DNA of 12,880 nucleotides from Candidatus Micrarchaeota archaeon (GTDB lineage Archaea; Micrarchaeota; Micrarchaeia; Norongarragalinales; UBA8480), in assembly GCA_043805855.1 (NCBI GenBank), contig JAZDHP010000004.1, positions 1-12,880 of the forward strand, in the 5' to 3' direction. Positions within the stretch are counted from its first letter, which is position 1, and each line of letters starts with the position of its first letter. Shown here one piece after another: positions 482-7,363 of the stretch. A program made the position numbers and the translations under genes. The notes beneath the pieces were generated by a model. It had not been told where the DNA came from. It made no database searches and worked only from the letters and a program-made list of their open reading frames with translations.

Positions 482-489
482 GTTATCCT

Positions 490-628
490 ATAGCACTATG
501 CAAAAGTGGTTTTGTAGAGGCGGCATAGTGCTATCAGCACAACGCAAAGCGTTGTGTCTGAATCATCGCCAGCAGGCGATGTTCAATTGCAATGTGCGTA
601 AAACATTTGAGAAATTTTAGCACATTGC
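490..628 (-). repeat. Intergenic multi-hairpin element, copy A (core 534-585, inverted relative to B and C)
   Basis: Four consecutive stems: ATAGCACTATGC 490-501/GCATAGTGCTAT 523-534; CACAACGC 538-545/GCGTTGTG 549-556; CATCGCC 564-570/GGCGATG 575-581; GCAATGTGC 589-597/GCACATTGC 620-628. The reverse complement of 534-585 matches the B/C core. Confidence 0.75.
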
Positions 629-658
629 TATAAAACATGTGAGTCAAGGTAATTTACA

Positions 659-1171
659 ATGAAAAAACTTAAAATAAAACAAACAAAAACAGCAAAGTCA
701 AAATCCACCAAGCTAAAACATATGACAAAGCAGGACGATGCTAAGGAAATGAAAGAAGTTGATGCTAAAGTTAAAGCCGAAGGCGAGAAAGACGTTGGCC
801 AGCCGGCGTTGAAATTATGCCCGCGTTGTGGGTCAATGGACCTCGGGTTTAGAAGAATTGATATTCCCGGGTTTGCGCCTGAATTGCAAGTTTGTAACCG
901 CTGTGGTTTTCGCAGTGAAGCAGCTGTTGAAGTTAGGCCAATTGAATACTTTGAAGAAGTTGAAGACGAAGAGAGTAAATTGCAAATTGAAGAAATTGAA
1001 AAACGCCTACAACGCGCCGGTATTGGAAAAATAATTGACCCAAAGTTAAAGAAAAAGCTAGGTGAAAAAAGCAAGCCAAAGGCTAAACTTAAAATTAAAC
1101 TAGTTCCAACGAAAGTTACAAAGAAGCAACCGACTAAAGTTAAATCGAAACCAGCGAAAAAGAAACGCTAG
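659..1171 (+). CDS. Zn-ribbon protein with lysine-rich N- and C-terminal tails
   Basis: CPRCGS...CNRCG (two CxxC pairs), an acidic patch EEVEDEE and highly basic low-complexity ends; AAGGT SD-like sequence upstream. Confidence 0.75.
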   Translation: MKKLKIKQTKTAKSKSTKLKHMTKQDDAKEMKEVDAKVKAEGEKDVGQPALKLCPRCGSMDLGFRRIDIPGFAPELQVCNRCGFRSEAAVEVRPIEYFEEVEDEESKLQIEEIEKRLQRAGIGKIIDPKLKKKLGEKSKPKAKLKIKLVPTKVTKKQPTKVKSKPAKKKR

Positions 1172-1176
1172 GTTCC

Positions 1177-1275
1177 CGTTGGTTCAGTAAGTGAGCACAA
1201 GCTAAGCGCTTGTGACTCAGTCACAAACGCCGCGGTGTTTGTGCTGAGGCCGCGGTGGGGGCCCTTGAGCGAACG
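1177..1275 (+). repeat. Intergenic multi-hairpin element, copy B (core 1192-1247)
   Basis: TGAG-CACAAGC(1196-1202)/GCTTGTG(1208-1214)-A-CTCAG-T-CACAAACGCC(1222-1231)/GGTGTTTGTG(1234-1243)-CTGAG; central 17-nt palindrome TTGTGACTCAGTCACAA at 1210-1226; possible enclosing stem 1177-1186/1266-1275. Confidence 0.8.
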
Positions 1276-1337
1276 CCTTTTAAACTTTGCAATCCTTTGT
1301 TTTAGCACTAGAAAGTATTTTTGAGAGGGATTTATTT

Positions 1338-1601
1338 ATGCCAAAATATGCAATTGCAAAACAACTAGCTGGAAAGCGAATAATCACAACTGACGGCGAA
1401 GAACTCGGCCGCATTGTTGACCTGTACGTAAACGAGCTAAATGGAAAACTCGAAAGCGTCATTGTTGAACCAAACCCAGAATCTTCACTTGGGATAAAAG
1501 CTGGCCCCGAAGGAGTTATAACAATTCCTTACAGTTCAGTTCTCGACGTCAAAGACGTAATGGTAGTTGACCGACGCGGACTAGCAGCACAAACTGCTTA
1601 A
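1338..1601 (+). CDS. PRC-barrel domain protein (87 aa; CdpB-like possible)
   Basis: AKQLAGKRIITTDGEELGRIVDLYVNELNGKLESVIV...IPYSSVLDVKDVMVV is the PRC-barrel pattern. Start moved to ATG 1338 because GAGGGA lies just upstream and a TTTTAAAC TATA-like box is at about 1278-1285. Confidence 0.9.
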   Translation: MPKYAIAKQLAGKRIITTDGEELGRIVDLYVNELNGKLESVIVEPNPESSLGIKAGPEGVITIPYSSVLDVKDVMVVDRRGLAAQTA

Positions 1602-1604
1602 ATA

Positions 1605-1695
1605 GTTTCTAATTTTTCTTTTTTCTTTATTTTTTATTTTCTTTATTTTTCTCTTTTCTTTAATTCTTTTTTTACCGTGGCTTTTTGTTAGTTTT
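1605..1695 (+). terminator. Long oligo-T/pyrimidine tract, archaeal-type terminator region
   Basis: About 90 nt of repeated T-runs directly after the PRC-barrel stop codon. Confidence 0.55.
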
Positions 1696-1758
1696 TAAAC
1701 TTTCTCTGCTTTACGTTTACTAATTAAATTTGTTAAGTAATGACTGAGGCGCTTTTGT

Positions 1759-2142
1759 ATGTTGTCGACGATTTTGAAAGAAATTCACAAAGTTTCTACA
1801 ATTAGCAGAATAAAAGTCGAAGGTGCTAAGAGTTTTGTTAGGGGTTCTGGAAAGAGCTCTGCGCAGTTAATTACGCTTGTATTAGACGCTTATGACGATA
1901 AACCATTTATGCACACTATTGCTTCGGGATTAAAAGCAAAAGGGTTTGTTATATTGAGCGGCGGCAAAGCTCAACTTCCATCTGTTAAAGTAGCAAAAGA
2001 TGGCCGCGCGATGTTGCTAGTGAGAACTGCTCCGGATTTAATTCAAGTATCGCTGTGCAATGCGCCCGACCAAAAAGATAAAACATTTACTGAAGAAGAA
2101 ATAGCAGAAGCGCACAGTACGTTAACCAAATTAAGAAGCTAG
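1759..2142 (+). CDS. Hypothetical protein (127 aa)
   Basis: ATG with GAGG upstream; stop overlaps the convergent NFACT stop by 4 nt; no family recognised. Confidence 0.65.
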   Translation: MLSTILKEIHKVSTISRIKVEGAKSFVRGSGKSSAQLITLVLDAYDDKPFMHTIASGLKAKGFVILSGGKAQLPSVKVAKDGRAMLLVRTAPDLIQVSLCNAPDQKDKTFTEEEIAEAHSTLTKLRS

Positions 2143-3263
2143 TTTTGCAATTCTAGTTCTACTTTTCCACTTTTTGCTTTTACTTCTTTTATTTTGTTCA
2201 TTTTTTCTGTTTCCTTTTTTTCAATAAACGACGCTAATTGTTTTTCAATTTCTTTCTCGCTTTTCTTTTCCTTTGTTAATTGCGCTGCAGTTTCAAGGAG
2301 TTCCTCGTAAAATTCGTAGTTGTTTTGCAATTCCTCTGCAATTTCCGTGTTTTCTTTTTCTACTTTTTTAAATTCTTCAAGCGCTTTACGCTGTGATTCT
2401 AAACGGTTTGCAGTTTTGCTCGTTGCTATTCTTGTACCTTTTTCTTTTTCCGTCTCCTTTTCTACTTTTGGTGCGCTGGCGTAGTAAAATTCCAACGCCT
2501 GCGAGAATGTTTCAAATGTTTTTTCTTCCATTTCTCCAAAACGTTTTAGTTTAGTGAAGGAAAATGCAGTTGGAATTCCATCTTTAAGGTAAACAGTCGG
2601 CGCGCATTCGCTGCTAATGTTTTTTAATTCCTTTAGTACTTCTTGTTTTTGCTTTTCGCTTAATTCCGTTATTTCGAGTGGTGCTTTTGTGCGTTGAAGT
2701 GCCTCTTCAATGTAAAATGGAGGAATGTTCGCCACGCCGGAAATTGCAGCGACTGTTTTACCAAGTGGTTTGAAATCGCTAGGCGTTAATCTGTCAAGAT
2801 TTTTCTTCGCTGGCGGTAAAACGTATTGTTCTTTTGGTTTTAGTGAACGCGACGCATATGATTCTCTTTTTAGCAAATCAACAATTTTTCCATCTTTTAA
2901 CAATAGTGCGTTTCCCTTGGCAAATAACTCAAAAACTAGCGAAAAGTTATCGCCGTTACGTTGCTTAAATTCAAAACTCACAACCCGGTCGTTGTTAAGT
3001 TGTTTTACTTCGCTTAGGTTGCTATTTTCTAGCCATTTGCGTATGATCATTGCGAATTGCGGCGGGGTTTCTTTTGTCTCTGGTGAATTTTCTGCAACAT
3101 AAAGTCGATCGCTATAAGCGACGATGTTAACTGTTCCTTTTTTCCTTAACTTCAATAAGCAACTTCCGTCTTGGCAGATGTAAAACTTGTCAAAAAACGC
3201 TCCGCTGTACGCGTTCAATTCGCGTGCTATCGCGCTGTAATCCCAGTTTCCCATTGATTGCAT
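2139..3263 (-). CDS. rqcH: NFACT family (Rqc2/RqcH/FbpA-like) protein, N-terminal part only
   Basis: NFACT-N motifs: D in MGNWDYSAIAREL, PPQFAMIIRKWL, QLNNDRVVSFEF (DR motif), FELFAKGNALL, RSLKPKEQYVLPP; then HhH-like region, FETFSQALEFYY and coiled coil. No NFACT-R domain. Confidence 0.88.
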   Translation of the reverse strand: MQSMGNWDYSAIARELNAYSGAFFDKFYICQDGSCLLKLRKKGTVNIVAYSDRLYVAENSPETKETPPQFAMIIRKWLENSNLSEVKQLNNDRVVSFEFKQRNGDNFSLVFELFAKGNALLLKDGKIVDLLKRESYASRSLKPKEQYVLPPAKKNLDRLTPSDFKPLGKTVAAISGVANIPPFYIEEALQRTKAPLEITELSEKQKQEVLKELKNISSECAPTVYLKDGIPTAFSFTKLKRFGEMEEKTFETFSQALEFYYASAPKVEKETEKEKGTRIATSKTANRLESQRKALEEFKKVEKENTEIAEELQNNYEFYEELLETAAQLTKEKKSEKEIEKQLASFIEKKETEKMNKIKEVKAKSGKVELELQN

Positions 3264-3266
3264 TTG

Positions 3267-3986
3267 TTATTTCGCCGCCGTTTTTCTTTCCATTTTTTCC
3301 AATACTTTTATTGCGTGTTCGTTGGTTAGTTTGCTTTTCAACAGTTTAATATTTTCTTCTAAGTTGCCAGGAACGTTGTGCAACCAGTTTGTTAAGTGGT
3401 TAGAATAATCTGGGGTAAGTTCTCTATCTTTTTCAAAATGCATTCCATAAAAGTCAAAGTCAGTTACCATTATCTTTTTGCCTGTTTTTGTTGGTACGAC
3501 GTTTATACTATCTGGCGCTGGCAAAATTCCTGCATTTGTAATCTTTGCGATTACATCTAGCAATTCACGTCGGTTTTTTTCTTTATTGAAATGCGCTTTC
3601 AGCGCAGAGTTCATTTTGAAACCTGTTGGATTTCCCCGCCTTGGTTGGAATTGCAATATTGGTTCAAACTTACTGCCTCTAGCTGTCGCGCCGTAAACCG
3701 CGCTAACTTGGACCCAGTTTCCTTCATGTTTAACGAAGCCAACTTTTGGCATTGGCGCGCCTACCCTTCGTAGGTTTTCAAGAGTTTGTCGATAAGCTCG
3801 TATGACTTCGTCAGTGACTTGCCAACCTGGATGAAACTTTTTAACCGCAACTCTCAATGGTTTTTTTCCCTTGAACCAAATTCTTCCATGGTAAACTGTG
3901 CCGAAGGCACCTTGTCCGATTTCTTTATCACTAACAACTAGTCGCTTCACTTCACTTGCGGTTTTCCATTCAATTTTTGCGGGCAT
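3267..3986 (-). CDS. Atypical protein kinase-like protein
   Basis: Gly loop IGQGAFGTVYHG, VAVKK lysine, PKV strand, candidate catalytic loop ILPAPDSINV and Mg-binding VTDFD. Confidence 0.8.
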   Translation of the reverse strand: MPAKIEWKTASEVKRLVVSDKEIGQGAFGTVYHGRIWFKGKKPLRVAVKKFHPGWQVTDEVIRAYRQTLENLRRVGAPMPKVGFVKHEGNWVQVSAVYGATARGSKFEPILQFQPRRGNPTGFKMNSALKAHFNKEKNRRELLDVIAKITNAGILPAPDSINVVPTKTGKKIMVTDFDFYGMHFEKDRELTPDYSNHLTNWLHNVPGNLEENIKLLKSKLTNEHAIKVLEKMERKTAAK

Positions 3987-4018
3987 TTTACTTTTCTCTC
4001 TTTTTTCTTGCCTTTCTT

Positions 4019-4747
4019 TTATTTTCTCGCTTTTCTTTCTTCTTTTCTCTGTTCAAGTACGTATTTTGCTGCGCGCGCTAACCTTCGAATTGGGCTTGCG
4101 GTTATTTGCTTGTGAATTTCTTCAGCTAGTTTGCGCGAAATATCCGGGTGTAAATATTTTTCTTGGCCTGGTGTTTTAAGCCCAGCTACTCGAAGTTGGT
4201 TATTTGTTCTCATGTTTATAACTAGTGTTTTCTTTTCGTTGGCCGTTAGTTCATTTCCATCTAAAAGTGCCATTGCTTCCCTCGCGTAGCCATTTGCAAC
4301 TAGCTTTTCAAGTGTGCGTTCAAGTACATCTTGGTAAAGTGCTGGCACTTCTACAATGAAACCGTTACTTCCAACGTGTGCAACTGCTAGCTCTGCAGCA
4401 GATGTTAATGCCTTTCCTACATTAAAGTCTCTAGGTTGTTTTGTAGTTGCTTTTCCCATTTTGTTTGCAGGGGTAGAATGAAAGTTTACAACTGGCGTTC
4501 CAAAGGCCAGTGCTGCTTGCTGTGCTAGTAAGTTGCTGTTAAGTGGTTCCCTCGCTAATTTTAAAAGCGTTTCTTTCATTGGCCTATCTTCTCTCAATTT
4601 GCCATAGCTAGTTGTGTGTAGTGGCACTTTTTCAAAAATAACTTTGTGCCCATATTCTCTTCTTAAAATCTCAGCAACTTTCCTCGCGTGGTAACTAGCA
4701 ACCACTTCCGTCGGGTGCTCTCCAATTATGAAAGTAACTTCTGCCAT
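4019..4747 (-). CDS. Putative M14/AstE-like zinc hydrolase, paralog A
   Basis: IIGEHPTEVVA (HxxE), PVVNFHS (third Zn ligand), FIVEVPA (catalytic-Glu position); clearly paralogous to 6041-6778. CDS is solid; the family call is motif-based. Confidence 0.65.
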   Translation of the reverse strand: MAEVTFIIGEHPTEVVASYHARKVAEILRREYGHKVIFEKVPLHTTSYGKLREDRPMKETLLKLAREPLNSNLLAQQAALAFGTPVVNFHSTPANKMGKATTKQPRDFNVGKALTSAAELAVAHVGSNGFIVEVPALYQDVLERTLEKLVANGYAREAMALLDGNELTANEKKTLVINMRTNNQLRVAGLKTPGQEKYLHPDISRKLAEEIHKQITASPIRRLARAAKYVLEQRKEERKARK

Positions 4748-4749
4748 GT

Positions 4750-5373
4750 TTACTTCACGTTTCGTATTTTTTCAAGCGTTTCTTTTTTCCATTGACTGAT
4801 TTGTTTGAACGTTTTGCCAACATAATGGCTGTCCTTGTTGTCGAACTCACGTATTACTCTAGTTAGTTCAATAAGTAAATGAAGTTTACTGTGTTTTTTC
4901 AAAGTTTTAAAATATTCTTCTAAATCTACAGCGTAAAGTAAAAGGGAAATGATGTCAATTGCATCTTTCTTTCCTTTTATAGTATTTTTACGGTCGCGTT
5001 CAGCACCTTGCTTTAAAATAAGTAGGTTCTCGGCAGATATGGTTTTGACGCCGTTTATAACTACTGTATTTTCAAGCAGGATTTCAACTGGAAGTTCTAA
5101 CTTTGAATAATGTGGCACGTAAATATCCATGTCAAACTGTTCAAATTTTACTTCATACTTGTTCAATCGATCGTTTTTTGCTAGGTTAAACGTTGCCCGA
5201 AGCTTTTCAAGCGAAGTGTAGTCAACAACTACATCAATATCCTTTGATTTATGCTGCTTAGTCCACAAGTACACTGCCCAGCCGCCAATCACAGTAACGT
5301 CGAACTCCTTGGCTATTTCTAGGAGTTTCTCCCAAGATTTTACAGTCACTATTTCATTCCAATATTCGCTCAT
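4750..5373 (-). CDS. Nucleotidyltransferase, AbiEii/MenT-like (type IV TA toxin)
   Basis: VIGGWAV...SKDIDVVV (GG..SxDxD), MDIY, and LLILKQGAERDR...KGKKDAIDI (K..R..KDxxD) are the AbiEii-like NTase motifs. Confidence 0.8.
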   Translation of the reverse strand: MSEYWNEIVTVKSWEKLLEIAKEFDVTVIGGWAVYLWTKQHKSKDIDVVVDYTSLEKLRATFNLAKNDRLNKYEVKFEQFDMDIYVPHYSKLELPVEILLENTVVINGVKTISAENLLILKQGAERDRKNTIKGKKDAIDIISLLLYAVDLEEYFKTLKKHSKLHLLIELTRVIREFDNKDSHYVGKTFKQISQWKKETLEKIRNVK

Positions 5374-5951
5374 TTGAGTTTTTCACCCAGTGCGTTTAGA
5401 AAGTCTCTAGCGTACCAGCCGCTTGCGTTCCAAAGGTCAACAAACAACAAATTAGTCGCGGCTATTGAGCCACTTGTCGTACTTGCTATAGTGTCGTTTG
5501 CTTTTAGTAAGTATAAATTCTTTGCGCCTTTTTTTTCTGGAAACCGGCGTTTAATTTCAGCTAGCTGTTCTTCTGTACAATACGCATAGACTTCGCTATA
5601 GTCAGCAGGCACGTCGTCGAACTTGAACTTGTACCCACTGAACGCCGTGAATATAACGTTTGAAGGAAGCGAATTTTCAATTTCCTTTACGCCGCTAGCA
5701 ACGCACGTAGAGTATAGCACATCTTTATCAAGTTTCCGAATAGTTGCCCAGTACGTGCGAATTTTCTCTTGGTCAATTACGCGTAACTCGCGAGGCTTAA
5801 CATCAACCGCGTGCATTTTTCTCAACGGCAGCAGCGCGTTGTTAACTGTACTAAGCGAAATGTCCAAAGCATTTGCTATTCCATCTTGGGTTATTTTTCC
5901 AGTTTTGTATTTTTCCAAAATATAGAGGTAAACCTCTTCCTTACGTTTCAT
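5370..5951 (-). CDS. Winged-HTH protein, AbiEi-like antitoxin/regulator
   Basis: N-terminal HTH TQDGIANALDISLSTVNNAL; DQEKIRTYWA, FTAFSGY, VYAY and LFVDLWN pattern; ATGA overlap with the NTase gene. Confidence 0.75.
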   Translation of the reverse strand: MKRKEEVYLYILEKYKTGKITQDGIANALDISLSTVNNALLPLRKMHAVDVKPRELRVIDQEKIRTYWATIRKLDKDVLYSTCVASGVKEIENSLPSNVIFTAFSGYKFKFDDVPADYSEVYAYCTEEQLAEIKRRFPEKKGAKNLYLLKANDTIASTTSGSIAATNLLFVDLWNASGWYARDFLNALGEKLK

Positions 5952-5953
5952 AC

Positions 5954-6015
5954 TTTCGAAAAAGAAAGAAACAGCTATTTAAACGTTTCGATAATTATCG
6001 AAAGTTATATTTCGA
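5954..6015 (-). promoter_or_regulatory. Promoter and palindromic operator of the wHTH-NTase pair
   Basis: Minus-strand TTTAAATA (5976-5983) about 25 nt upstream of ATG 5951; perfect 18-bp palindrome TTTCGATAATTATCGAAA 5986-6003; further TTTCGA units at 5954 (TTTCGAAA) and 6010. Confidence 0.7.
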
Positions 6016-6040
6016 GGGAACAGGGGGCATTCTTTTGAGT

Positions 6041-6778
6041 TTACTTTGTCTTTTTCCTTTCTTTCAACTGCGTAATTTTGTATTTAGCTGCACGCGCTAG
6101 TCTTCGAATAGGATCCGCAGTTATTTGCTTGTGAATTTCTTCTGCTAATTTTCGTGAAATATCTTCATGTAAATACTTTTCCTGTCTTATTGTCCCGAGT
6201 TTTGTTGCTTCTGCGTGGTAAGTTGGGTTAAGCAGCTTTGCTATTGCTAGGTAATGTTCTTTAGATTTGCCTTTAAGCAGCGCTCTTGTTTTTTGTACTA
6301 TCTCTGCTAATTCTTTGACTTTAAGTTTCATAGGTATTGGCGCATAAACTGCAGGCATTTCTACGAGAAAGGCGTTTTCGCTTGTCTTTGTAACAATCAA
6401 TTCTTTTTCCATTTGTCGGTCTTGTGGCATGCGTCGGCCAATTTGAAATTCAGGTGGCTCCTTTCTCCTAGCATGTCTAAATGCAGTATCTTGCGATGCA
6501 TGAAAGTTAAACACTGGACACCTTGCTTTTTTTGCTGTGTCCCTTACAATTCCTACTGAGCCTCCGCCAGTTGCAAGGTTCATCAATTCTAAAGCCTTTT
6601 CCTCTGGAGTCATTTTTTCATTGCGCAGTAGCCCGAAAATAGTGTATTGAGGTGGAAGTTTAATTGTTAGTATATCGTGTCCGTATTTCCTGCGCAAAAT
6701 CGCAGCTACTCTCCGGCAGTGTACTCCGGCTACAACTTCAGTTGGATGTTCATTCCACAATAAAACCGCGCGTGCCAT
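6041..6778 (-). CDS. Putative M14/AstE-like zinc hydrolase, paralog B
   Basis: LLWNEHPTEVVA, PVFNFHA, FLVEMPAVY; shares QEKYLHxDISRKLAEEIHKQITAxPIRRLARAAKY with paralog A. Confidence 0.65.
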   Translation of the reverse strand: MARAVLLWNEHPTEVVAGVHCRRVAAILRRKYGHDILTIKLPPQYTIFGLLRNEKMTPEEKALELMNLATGGGSVGIVRDTAKKARCPVFNFHASQDTAFRHARRKEPPEFQIGRRMPQDRQMEKELIVTKTSENAFLVEMPAVYAPIPMKLKVKELAEIVQKTRALLKGKSKEHYLAIAKLLNPTYHAEATKLGTIRQEKYLHEDISRKLAEEIHKQITADPIRRLARAAKYKITQLKERKKTK

Positions 6779-6804
6779 TTTGTATCAGCAACTTTTGCTA
6801 AGAT

Positions 6805-7017
6805 TTATTGTCTCGCGGCGAGTTTAATATCTTGAGCAGTTACTGTTTTCCTGCCAGCGTGTCGAGCAAGTTGAGAAGCCTTTTGTGCTAAGTCCAAAGC
6901 GTAGTTTTCCAAAACGTCTCCCAGCGCTTCAGCTGCTTCTGGCGAAACCCTCTCTGCCCCTGCTTTTCTAATTAACCTTTCAATTGGCGCAACCGGTAGA
7001 TTTGCCTTTGTTTCCAT
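6805..7017 (-). CDS. Archaeal histone (HMfA/HMfB-like, 70 aa)
   Basis: LPVAPIERLIRKAGAERVS...LARHAGRKTVTAQDIKLA is the canonical archaeal histone fold. Start moved to ATG 7017 (METKANLP), preceded by AAGGTG SD. Confidence 0.95.
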   Translation of the reverse strand: METKANLPVAPIERLIRKAGAERVSPEAAEALGDVLENYALDLAQKASQLARHAGRKTVTAQDIKLAARQ

Positions 7018-7078
7018 AAATAACACCTTCTTCGTGCTTGGATTGTTCCAAACAACGCTATAATTCCTCACAAAACAG

Positions 7079-7095
7079 AATTAAAAGCTTTTCCC
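7079..7095 (-). promoter_or_regulatory. Putative BRE/TATA promoter of the histone gene
   Basis: Minus strand reads GGGAAAAGCTTTTAATT: purine-rich BRE followed by TTTTAA. Confidence 0.5.
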
Positions 7096-7126
7096 GCGAT
7101 TAGCGTCACTTTTTGTACTTCCTTTA

Positions 7127-7236
7127 CTTAACGAAGCAAGCTTCGTTAAGGCCTTGAGCACAATGCCGCTGCATTGTGACTCAGTCGCAAGGCTTCGAGC
7201 CTTGCGCCGATACGCCTCGCTTGCAAGCGAGGTGTA
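7127..7236 (+). repeat. Intergenic multi-hairpin element, copy C (core 7155-7210)
   Basis: Four stems: CTTAACGAAG 7127-7136/CTTCGTTAAG 7141-7150; CACAATGC 7159-7166/GCATTGTG 7171-7178; CGCAAGGCT 7186-7194/AGCCTTGCG 7198-7206; TACGCCTCGCT 7211-7221/AGCGAGGTGTA 7226-7236. Shares TGAGCACAA...TTGTGACTCAGTC with copy B. Confidence 0.8.
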
Positions 7237-7363
7237 AGTTAACTCTTCCGTCGTTTCGTCGATTTTTCACAACAACCGCAGCGTTTTTTCAATTGTTTTG
7301 ACGGTTTTTTTCGCGTAAATCTTATCTCCCAGCTGGCGGCTTTATCTTGCAAGGGGTTTACAG

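Follow-up and report, generated by a model that had tools for sequence, protein, structure and literature searches.

The window analysed here is the whole stretch of 12,880 nucleotides of contig C4 from a Candidatus Micrarchaeota archaeon, whose archaeal assembly, G000 (1.03 Mb, 92% complete), carries histone, Hef-like, ScpB and ribosomal S2 genes. Between its open reading frames (ORFs) lie three copies, A, B and C, of a short element made of two adjacent hairpins. A sequence-only reading of the window had pointed them out: they are present letter for letter, and either strand of each folds into two hairpins, whether as DNA or as RNA. It had not noticed that all three are nested in other repeats (Table 1). 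Its suggestion of a non-autonomous mobile DNA, which keeps its structure while its stem sequences are free to change, is borne out by the comparison of filled and empty sites, and we are nearly certain that the element is mobile. In what follows, G-numbers designate the genomes compared, C-numbers the contigs of G000, and L-numbers loci.

Anatomy and distribution of the element

The element reads TGAG, hairpin 1, ACTCAGW, hairpin 2, CTGA, and is 49 to 60 nucleotides long, typically about 54. Over 171 distinct sequences, the frame letters other than W are 96-100% fixed, but most of these sequences were collected with a pattern that itself fixes them. The stems vary freely yet pair: 96.6% of cells are paired, and two-sided changes are found in 15 of the 21 pairs, counts that carry no correction for relatedness. 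The two compensatory changes already quoted from the window are present. None of 500 shuffles matched the number of two-sided changes, slid controls pair in only 30-41% of cases, and the reversed pattern had no match in 61 genomes. Part of the covariation may come from palindrome repair instead of selection.

The first foot pairs TGAG with CTCA and the second TCAG with CTGA: both compete for the central TCA, and since this triplet is common to both, the two 4-bp feet cannot fully form together. A single base stays unpaired close to the foot of each arm, loops are mostly 3 nucleotides long, and the GC content ranges from 0.31 to 0.69, mostly near 0.5. Terminal inverted repeats agree at 8/9 in the modal copies, and are lost where the two arms differ. 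There is also a four-hairpin form, with the same two ends, two added central arms and fixed linkers; none was found in 11 other genomes of the family.

A covariance model applied to G000 finds 22 two-hairpin copies, with E-values from 1e-12 to 1e-17, most of them matched on both strands because the frame is nearly unchanged on the minus strand. With three four-hairpin copies the total is 25, all starting with T and ending with A. With 25 copies in 1.03 Mb, the three copies in 7 kb that had suggested many genome-wide represent an above-average density. A looser heuristic scan was restricted to the collection of candidates, because shuffled genomes also gave 4-10 matches each, one of them scoring as high as real copies.

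The same model has matches in 6 of 61 relatives (G000-G003, G010 and G026), in 2 of the 146 genomes of a phylum sample, and in 8 of 61 genomes of the phylum of G063, in which one locus is assigned to Ca. Altiarchaeota; here and below, absence means not found in genomes that are incomplete, metagenome-assembled ones. In a genome collection, the pattern retrieved 27 stretches, of which the 20 archaeal ones are all double hairpins and none of the 7 bacterial ones forms one. Metagenomes gave at least 127 stretches, with double hairpins in 110 of the 123 matches in L047-L154 and in 48 of 49 in L155-L201. Viral contigs gave a single match, which does not fold, and further scans of them 0, 0 and 0; plasmids and phages gave nothing that folds. 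This patchy presence in related Micrarchaeota and in Altiarchaeota suggests a transfer between the two groups. Separately, a Fic-like gene, so named by eye (G000 C66:6759-7658, L328:3104-3997), has 63% identity in the comparison of G000 with G063, one of the top values for their shared proteins, and was likely transferred horizontally.

Exact insertion and choice of target

Of the 141 distinct junctions, an uninterrupted counterpart exists for 87, and in 78 of these the removal of exactly the segment from TGAG to CTGA leaves a gap-free alignment. Junctions with identical flanking bases are exact in 49 of 55 cases, so that there is no 1-bp target duplication. The orthologous or syntenic sites of copies A, B and C are empty in G002 and G003, that of copy A in G001 as well. 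Conversely, where G001 has its copies, G000 has a shorter gap between the orthologous genes. A single host repeat can be split at different positions by different copies: the repeat that holds copy C is split elsewhere 6 nucleotides further upstream. The frame around copy A resembles, by eye, one of the other repeat families, with no spanning empty copy found by BLAST, and is absent in G001-G003; we infer that it is a host repeat.

The rule for targets is simple: either A precedes the insert or T follows it (A^ or ^T, the caret marking the insertion point). It holds for 85 of 91 distinct targets against a background of 52% (p 8e-18), for 28 of 30 held-out targets, and for 9 of 11 targets in G063; the target of copy B is an exception. 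Targets of the form T^A number 0 against 5.3 expected among the 91, and target palindromy gives no signal. In G000, 17 of the 25 copies have the same sense with respect to GC skew.

Within G000, 18 of 25 copies lie inside other repeats, whereas 56 of 400 random intergenic points do so. Part of this enrichment is hitch-hiking, as seen from two cases: copy C has a near-identical twin in the same host site at C1:2506, and in G064 one insertion has been amplified to about 10 near-identical copies, all at the same site of a repeat that appears IS605-like, as a neighbouring tnpA fragment suggests.

Table 1. Positions of element copies, of their host repeats, and of copies that leave the frame of a cellular gene open. 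Positions without prefix refer to the window.
Feature	Location	Strand or orientation	Remarks
Element copy A	534..585	-	52 nt; foot variant TGAA/TTCA; target T^T; covariance model E 1.6e-13
Element copy B	1192..1247	+	56 nt; target G^G; covariance model E 2.7e-14
Element copy C	7155..7210	+	56 nt; end variant CCGA; target T^T; covariance model E 9.3e-15
Putative host double-hairpin repeat, frame TATAGCA...TTGCTATA	489..632	unassigned	centre split by copy A
Host GC-rich hairpin-plus-tail repeat	1167..1267	+	split by copy B; 5 uninterrupted matches elsewhere
Host double-hairpin repeat, frame TTTACTTAAC...GTAAGTTAAC	7123..7243	+	split by copy C; 11 uninterrupted matches elsewhere
Four-hairpin copy	G000 C31:253-360
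Four-hairpin copy	G000 C59:9625-9729
Four-hairpin copy	G000 C66:6256-6361
Four-hairpin copy	L083
PGK gene (Pfam)	L087	sense	51 nt, frame open
Presumed MTA-phosphorylase-like gene	L203	sense	51 nt, frame open
GlyRS gene (named by eye)	L079	antisense	51 nt, frame open
LeuRS gene (named by eye)	L080	antisense	54 nt, frame open
NurA-like gene (named by eye)	L182		53 nt, frame open
Whirly-like gene	G000	antisense	54 nt, frame open
Helix-turn-helix (HTH) gene		antisense	57 nt, frame open

Copies inside genes and transfer RNA introns

The location between ORFs, noted for the window, is not general: elsewhere the element also lies inside genes. The reading frame stays open in seven cellular genes, in either orientation (Table 1), and is broken in two IS256 transposase genes, which hold three insertions (one in L052, two in opposite orientations in L123) of 55 nt, of 56 nt, and one with an in-frame stop. 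Three orthologues of the Whirly-like protein of G000 lack exactly the 18 residues that correspond to the insert. Overlap with ORFs, a criterion biased towards in-frame copies, brought up this case and the HTH one; a flank test that does not depend on frame yielded four in-gene copies, all open, and a random copy has a length of 3n and no stop about 19% of the time (54/107 and 244/642). Since the 53-nt insert of the NurA-like gene leaves the frame open, a compensating change probably occurred there. The frame being kept in cellular genes, the insert is likely translated and not spliced, judging from these sequences.

Two copies of G000 lie, by eye, apparently in introns of transfer RNA (tRNA) genes, in antisense; ARAGORN calls only 5 tRNAs in this genome. 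T/A-rich hairpin repeats form T-loop or D-loop introns of tRNA genes at five places of G000 (C53:5691-5884, C26:938-1063, C22:4551-4614, C9:30679-30764 and C53:15950-16013), and the same kind of repeat also hosts the element in G063. At L055:780-960, a copy lies just past the 3' end of a tRNA; a short duplicate of that tRNA end delimits the repeat around it. Further double-hairpin repeats, of at least two families whose feet are fixed while their stems vary, are present at G000 C48:5569-5662, C64:25531-25625 and C10:42111-42174, and at 489-632 and 7123-7243 of the window. One such family has AGCA/TGCT ends that resemble those of the element, and may have the same mover.

The ORFs at 4019-4747 and 6041-6778 of the window form a paralogous pair, with an N-terminal HPTE motif, a near-identical C-terminal block and no Pfam match; relatives of these ORFs occur on several element-bearing contigs. 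Between them, at 4750-5951, lie an HTH gene and a nucleotidyltransferase-like gene, which we take to resemble a type IV toxin-antitoxin pair. In the G002 and G003 loci compared, this pair was not seen between the flanking genes. At L005:509-1550, two directly oriented copies, each placed within a host repeat, bound a stretch of about 930 nt. The nucleotidyltransferase-like gene that it carries is absent from the G000 site, and the whole looks like a repeat-bounded cassette.

How the element may move

We propose, with a probability of roughly 0.55, that the element is a gene-less mobile DNA of about 54 nt, which inserts precisely and without duplication, likely as a folded single-strand circle, through an enzyme acting in trans that is most likely HUH (Y1)-like. 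Taken separately, the folded single-stranded DNA intermediate is probable, and HUH-type catalysis is a tentative assignment with odds somewhat below even; it is the first choice because of the precedent of the IS200/IS605 and RAYT enzymes, which, in the parts of PMC10055086 and PMC8266576 that bear on them, act on single-stranded DNA hairpins with bulges, use foot guides, make no duplication, and for IS200/IS605 involve single-stranded circles with hairpin ends. Once its ends are joined, the element would become a dumbbell in which the junction, CTGA followed by TGAG, faces the central strand. This strand, ACTCAGW, could pair with either end and hold both together, and the two arms, each with an unpaired base close to the foot, would be bound by the two subunits of a dimer, one apiece. 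The element being nearly two-fold symmetric, either strand could move, joined next to A. A single-strand route in which one base is read on either strand gives the best fit. A second route of spread may be added, copies that land in other mobile repeats being carried along as those multiply.

Several observations point to events at the level of DNA. The predicted junction, exact or with one base changed, occurs in head-to-tail dimers at L253, L258 and L132. Loops are inverted in place on identical arms in 5 of 74 cases (null 0.84, p 0.001) and in 3 of 24 (null 0.35, p 0.003). From dimers and flips together we infer a folded single-stranded DNA intermediate. No GNRA or UUCG is present among 50 four-base loops, and G-T and A-C mismatches stand at 5:3; with the loop flips and the 3-nt loops, this favours the folding of DNA over that of an RNA strand. 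In addition, the copy at L144:1081-1134 is a chimera, its left flank matching the site of L106 and its right flank that of L080, which is likely the result of recombination between two copies.

A number of results weigh against the proposal. The Y1 transposase domain PF01797 is found in none of G000-G003, G062, G063, G086 and G100, and only as fragments in G064, so that it is absent or a remnant in nine of nine carriers tested, and it is present in G004 and G005, both without the element. A scan of G000 and G063 for HUH motifs gave no convincing protein. There is no target motif of 4-5 nt of the IS200/IS605 type, the C at position +4 of 51 of the 91 targets, and of 20 of 30 held-out ones, is unexplained, and where targets fold, the insertions favour neither stems nor loops nor hairpin feet. 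No half-ends around an ORF were seen in G000 and the loci examined. No circle was observed, the dimers with their junction being an indirect sign of one. Finally, the junction counts given above are partly non-independent, through hitch-hiking and kinship.

The link to a RAYT, TnpA or tyrosine recombinase gene, which had been the lead to follow, was not found. The TnpA loci of G004, G005 and L051 have no DNA match to the intergenic DNA of G000 masked for the element. Tyrosine recombinases, two in number, are not co-distributed with it: they occur in G000, G003, G026 and 10 non-carriers, and not in carriers G001, G002 and G010. The TnpB domain PF07282 has no match over cut-off in G000, and no recurrent gene family neighbours the element among 401 ORFs. 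In the comparison of G000 with G063, which covered 1.46 of about 1.6 Mb and in which 255 of 321 shared proteins were read by eye, no recognisable mobility gene appeared, except a common integrase type, 27% identical.

In an alternative scheme, the element moves without a dedicated transposase. Host junction resolvase, flap nuclease, topoisomerase and ligase would cut and reseal it as cruciform or branched DNA, with gene conversion between filled and empty host repeats spreading it. Carriers without a transposase of any tested class, the two carriers with no recognisable mobility gene in common but that integrase type, and the DNA-level recombination seen in the loop flips and the L144 chimera all agree with this scheme; we nevertheless hold it unlikely, since repair should leave ragged ends, deletions or duplications where ends are exact, since it leaves unaccounted for the near-fixed letters of the ends and centre (partly fixed by the search pattern), and since the element is absent in most kin that have these host enzymes. 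A route through RNA, in which the tRNA-splicing machinery or the element itself would do the cutting and ligation before reverse transcription, is very unlikely. It would explain the lack of target duplication, for which an RNA route is suggested for the Allomyces elements in part of PMC2800124, and the tRNA introns read by eye among the hosts. Against it stand the two orientations found in transcribed genes, the frame kept in cellular genes, where the insert is likely unspliced, loops mostly of 3 nt and without RNA tetraloops, and a search for reverse transcriptase (PF00078) that found none in six Micrarchaeota carriers. Moreover, the flanks contain no constant partner with which a bulge-helix-bulge site could pair.

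Joined into a circle, the ends form a nearly perfect palindrome with AT in the middle, and one or both of these bases match in the targets, so that a serine (IS607-like) or IS110-like recombinase tolerating one mismatch could act on both strands at this core. Such a recombination predicts an altered end base in about half of the A^A and T^T insertions, and 0 of the 25 G000 copies have one; PF00239 (serine resolvase) has no match in G000, and PF01548 (IS110) none over cut-off in six carriers. This double-strand mechanism is largely refuted, and its probability is now very low. Lower still is that of a functional non-coding RNA or cis-regulatory hairpin under host selection, which the strong covariation and the many copies upstream of genes could evoke. 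The copies occupy sites not common to congeners, they split genes and repeats in either orientation and at no set position, tRNA introns included, and the window has no Rfam match up to E=1, which largely refutes this reading. The earlier notion of a structured RNA motif is not supported. A scan for sigma-70 promoters and terminators gave chance-level counts, with models unsuited to archaea.

Other known objects were compared and set aside. The circle junction would read CUGAUGA, as in a hammerhead, but no GAAA follows; box C/D, bulge-helix-bulge introns and topoisomerase IA (C at -4) are also misfits in sequence. A MITE moved by a DDE enzyme would have a target-site duplication, and the element has none. 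Integron attC sites have RYYYAAC and GTTRRRY ends, follow cassette genes in direct orientation and are recognised by IntI: here the ends differ, orientation is mixed and tyrosine recombinases are not co-distributed. TIGR arrays, as outlined in part of PMC12045711, have 5-15 tandem units with unpaired spacers of 8-12 nt and an adjacent Tas gene with a Nop domain; the element comes as dispersed single units whose parts between CA and TG are self-paired, and the 401 neighbouring ORFs, in which no search with a Nop profile was made, include no recurrent family.

Going further, the dumbbell DNA would be a complete mobile unit of a class undescribed in prokaryotes: its central strand would splint the ends, either strand would insert by a single A, the centre would take extra arms, and the enzyme would lie outside known transposase families, possibly moving the tRNA-intron hairpin repeats too. 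To this extension we give limited credence.

Relation to known systems

How tiny palindromic repeats such as REPINs, Rickettsia palindromic elements and mitochondrial double-hairpin elements (DHEs) spread without duplication is a long-open question. The present family supplies exact ends, some 140 mapped junctions, a target rule, dimers, a four-arm form, and carrier and non-carrier genomes, and its mechanism is thus open to direct assays with short oligonucleotides. It also adds inserts of 17-19 residues to core proteins of DPANN archaea (GlyRS, LeuRS, PGK), and a new mover, if there is one, would provide a minimal scarless insertion system. A literature search, with most subscription journals and supplements outside its reach, found no description of the element.

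A close bacterial counterpart is the REP/REPIN/BIME-RAYT system, which the sections of PMC3116915 and PMC8266576 devoted to it describe as a tiny non-autonomous doublet of inverted hairpins, with bulged stem, foot tetranucleotide and nested repeat clusters. Like a REPIN, the element inserts as a whole unit, and no isolated halves were seen. Unlike a REPIN, it has no GTAG tag, its feet being TGAG and TCAG, no spacer, the feet of its units overlapping, and no sequence conservation in its stems; its target is A^ or ^T instead of a CT/CA cleavage, no RAYT was found, and its host is a DPANN archaeon. With the PATEs of IS200/IS605, described in part of PMC10055086, it shares the lack of genes, a hairpin at both ends, a fixed end tetranucleotide, no duplication and scarless empty sites. 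It differs from them by the lack of a 4-5-nt target motif, only A^ or ^T and a weak +4 C being seen, by both strands appearing usable, by one shared central strand that would hold its ends, by a TnpA that is not co-distributed, and by no tnpA partner sharing its ends having been found.

Fungal mitochondrial DHEs, in the portions of PMC2800124 and PMC10085805 on which we draw, also consist of two adjacent hairpins, patchy in close relatives, without flanking duplication and with an unknown mover. Compared by description only, they differ in that the element sits in an archaeal chromosome at about 50% GC, where the screen for fission-yeast DHEs asked for more than 75% GC; for the element, a target rule and a four-arm form have been measured. 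Rickettsia palindromic elements (PMC10969869; PMC4478555 was also consulted for these comparisons) are likewise palindromic inserts in frame in unrelated housekeeping genes, at about 150 nt instead of about 54, and the element lies mostly outside genes, in both orientations. It thus works like REPINs, PATEs, Rickettsia palindromic elements and fungal DHEs, and fails a defining test of each.

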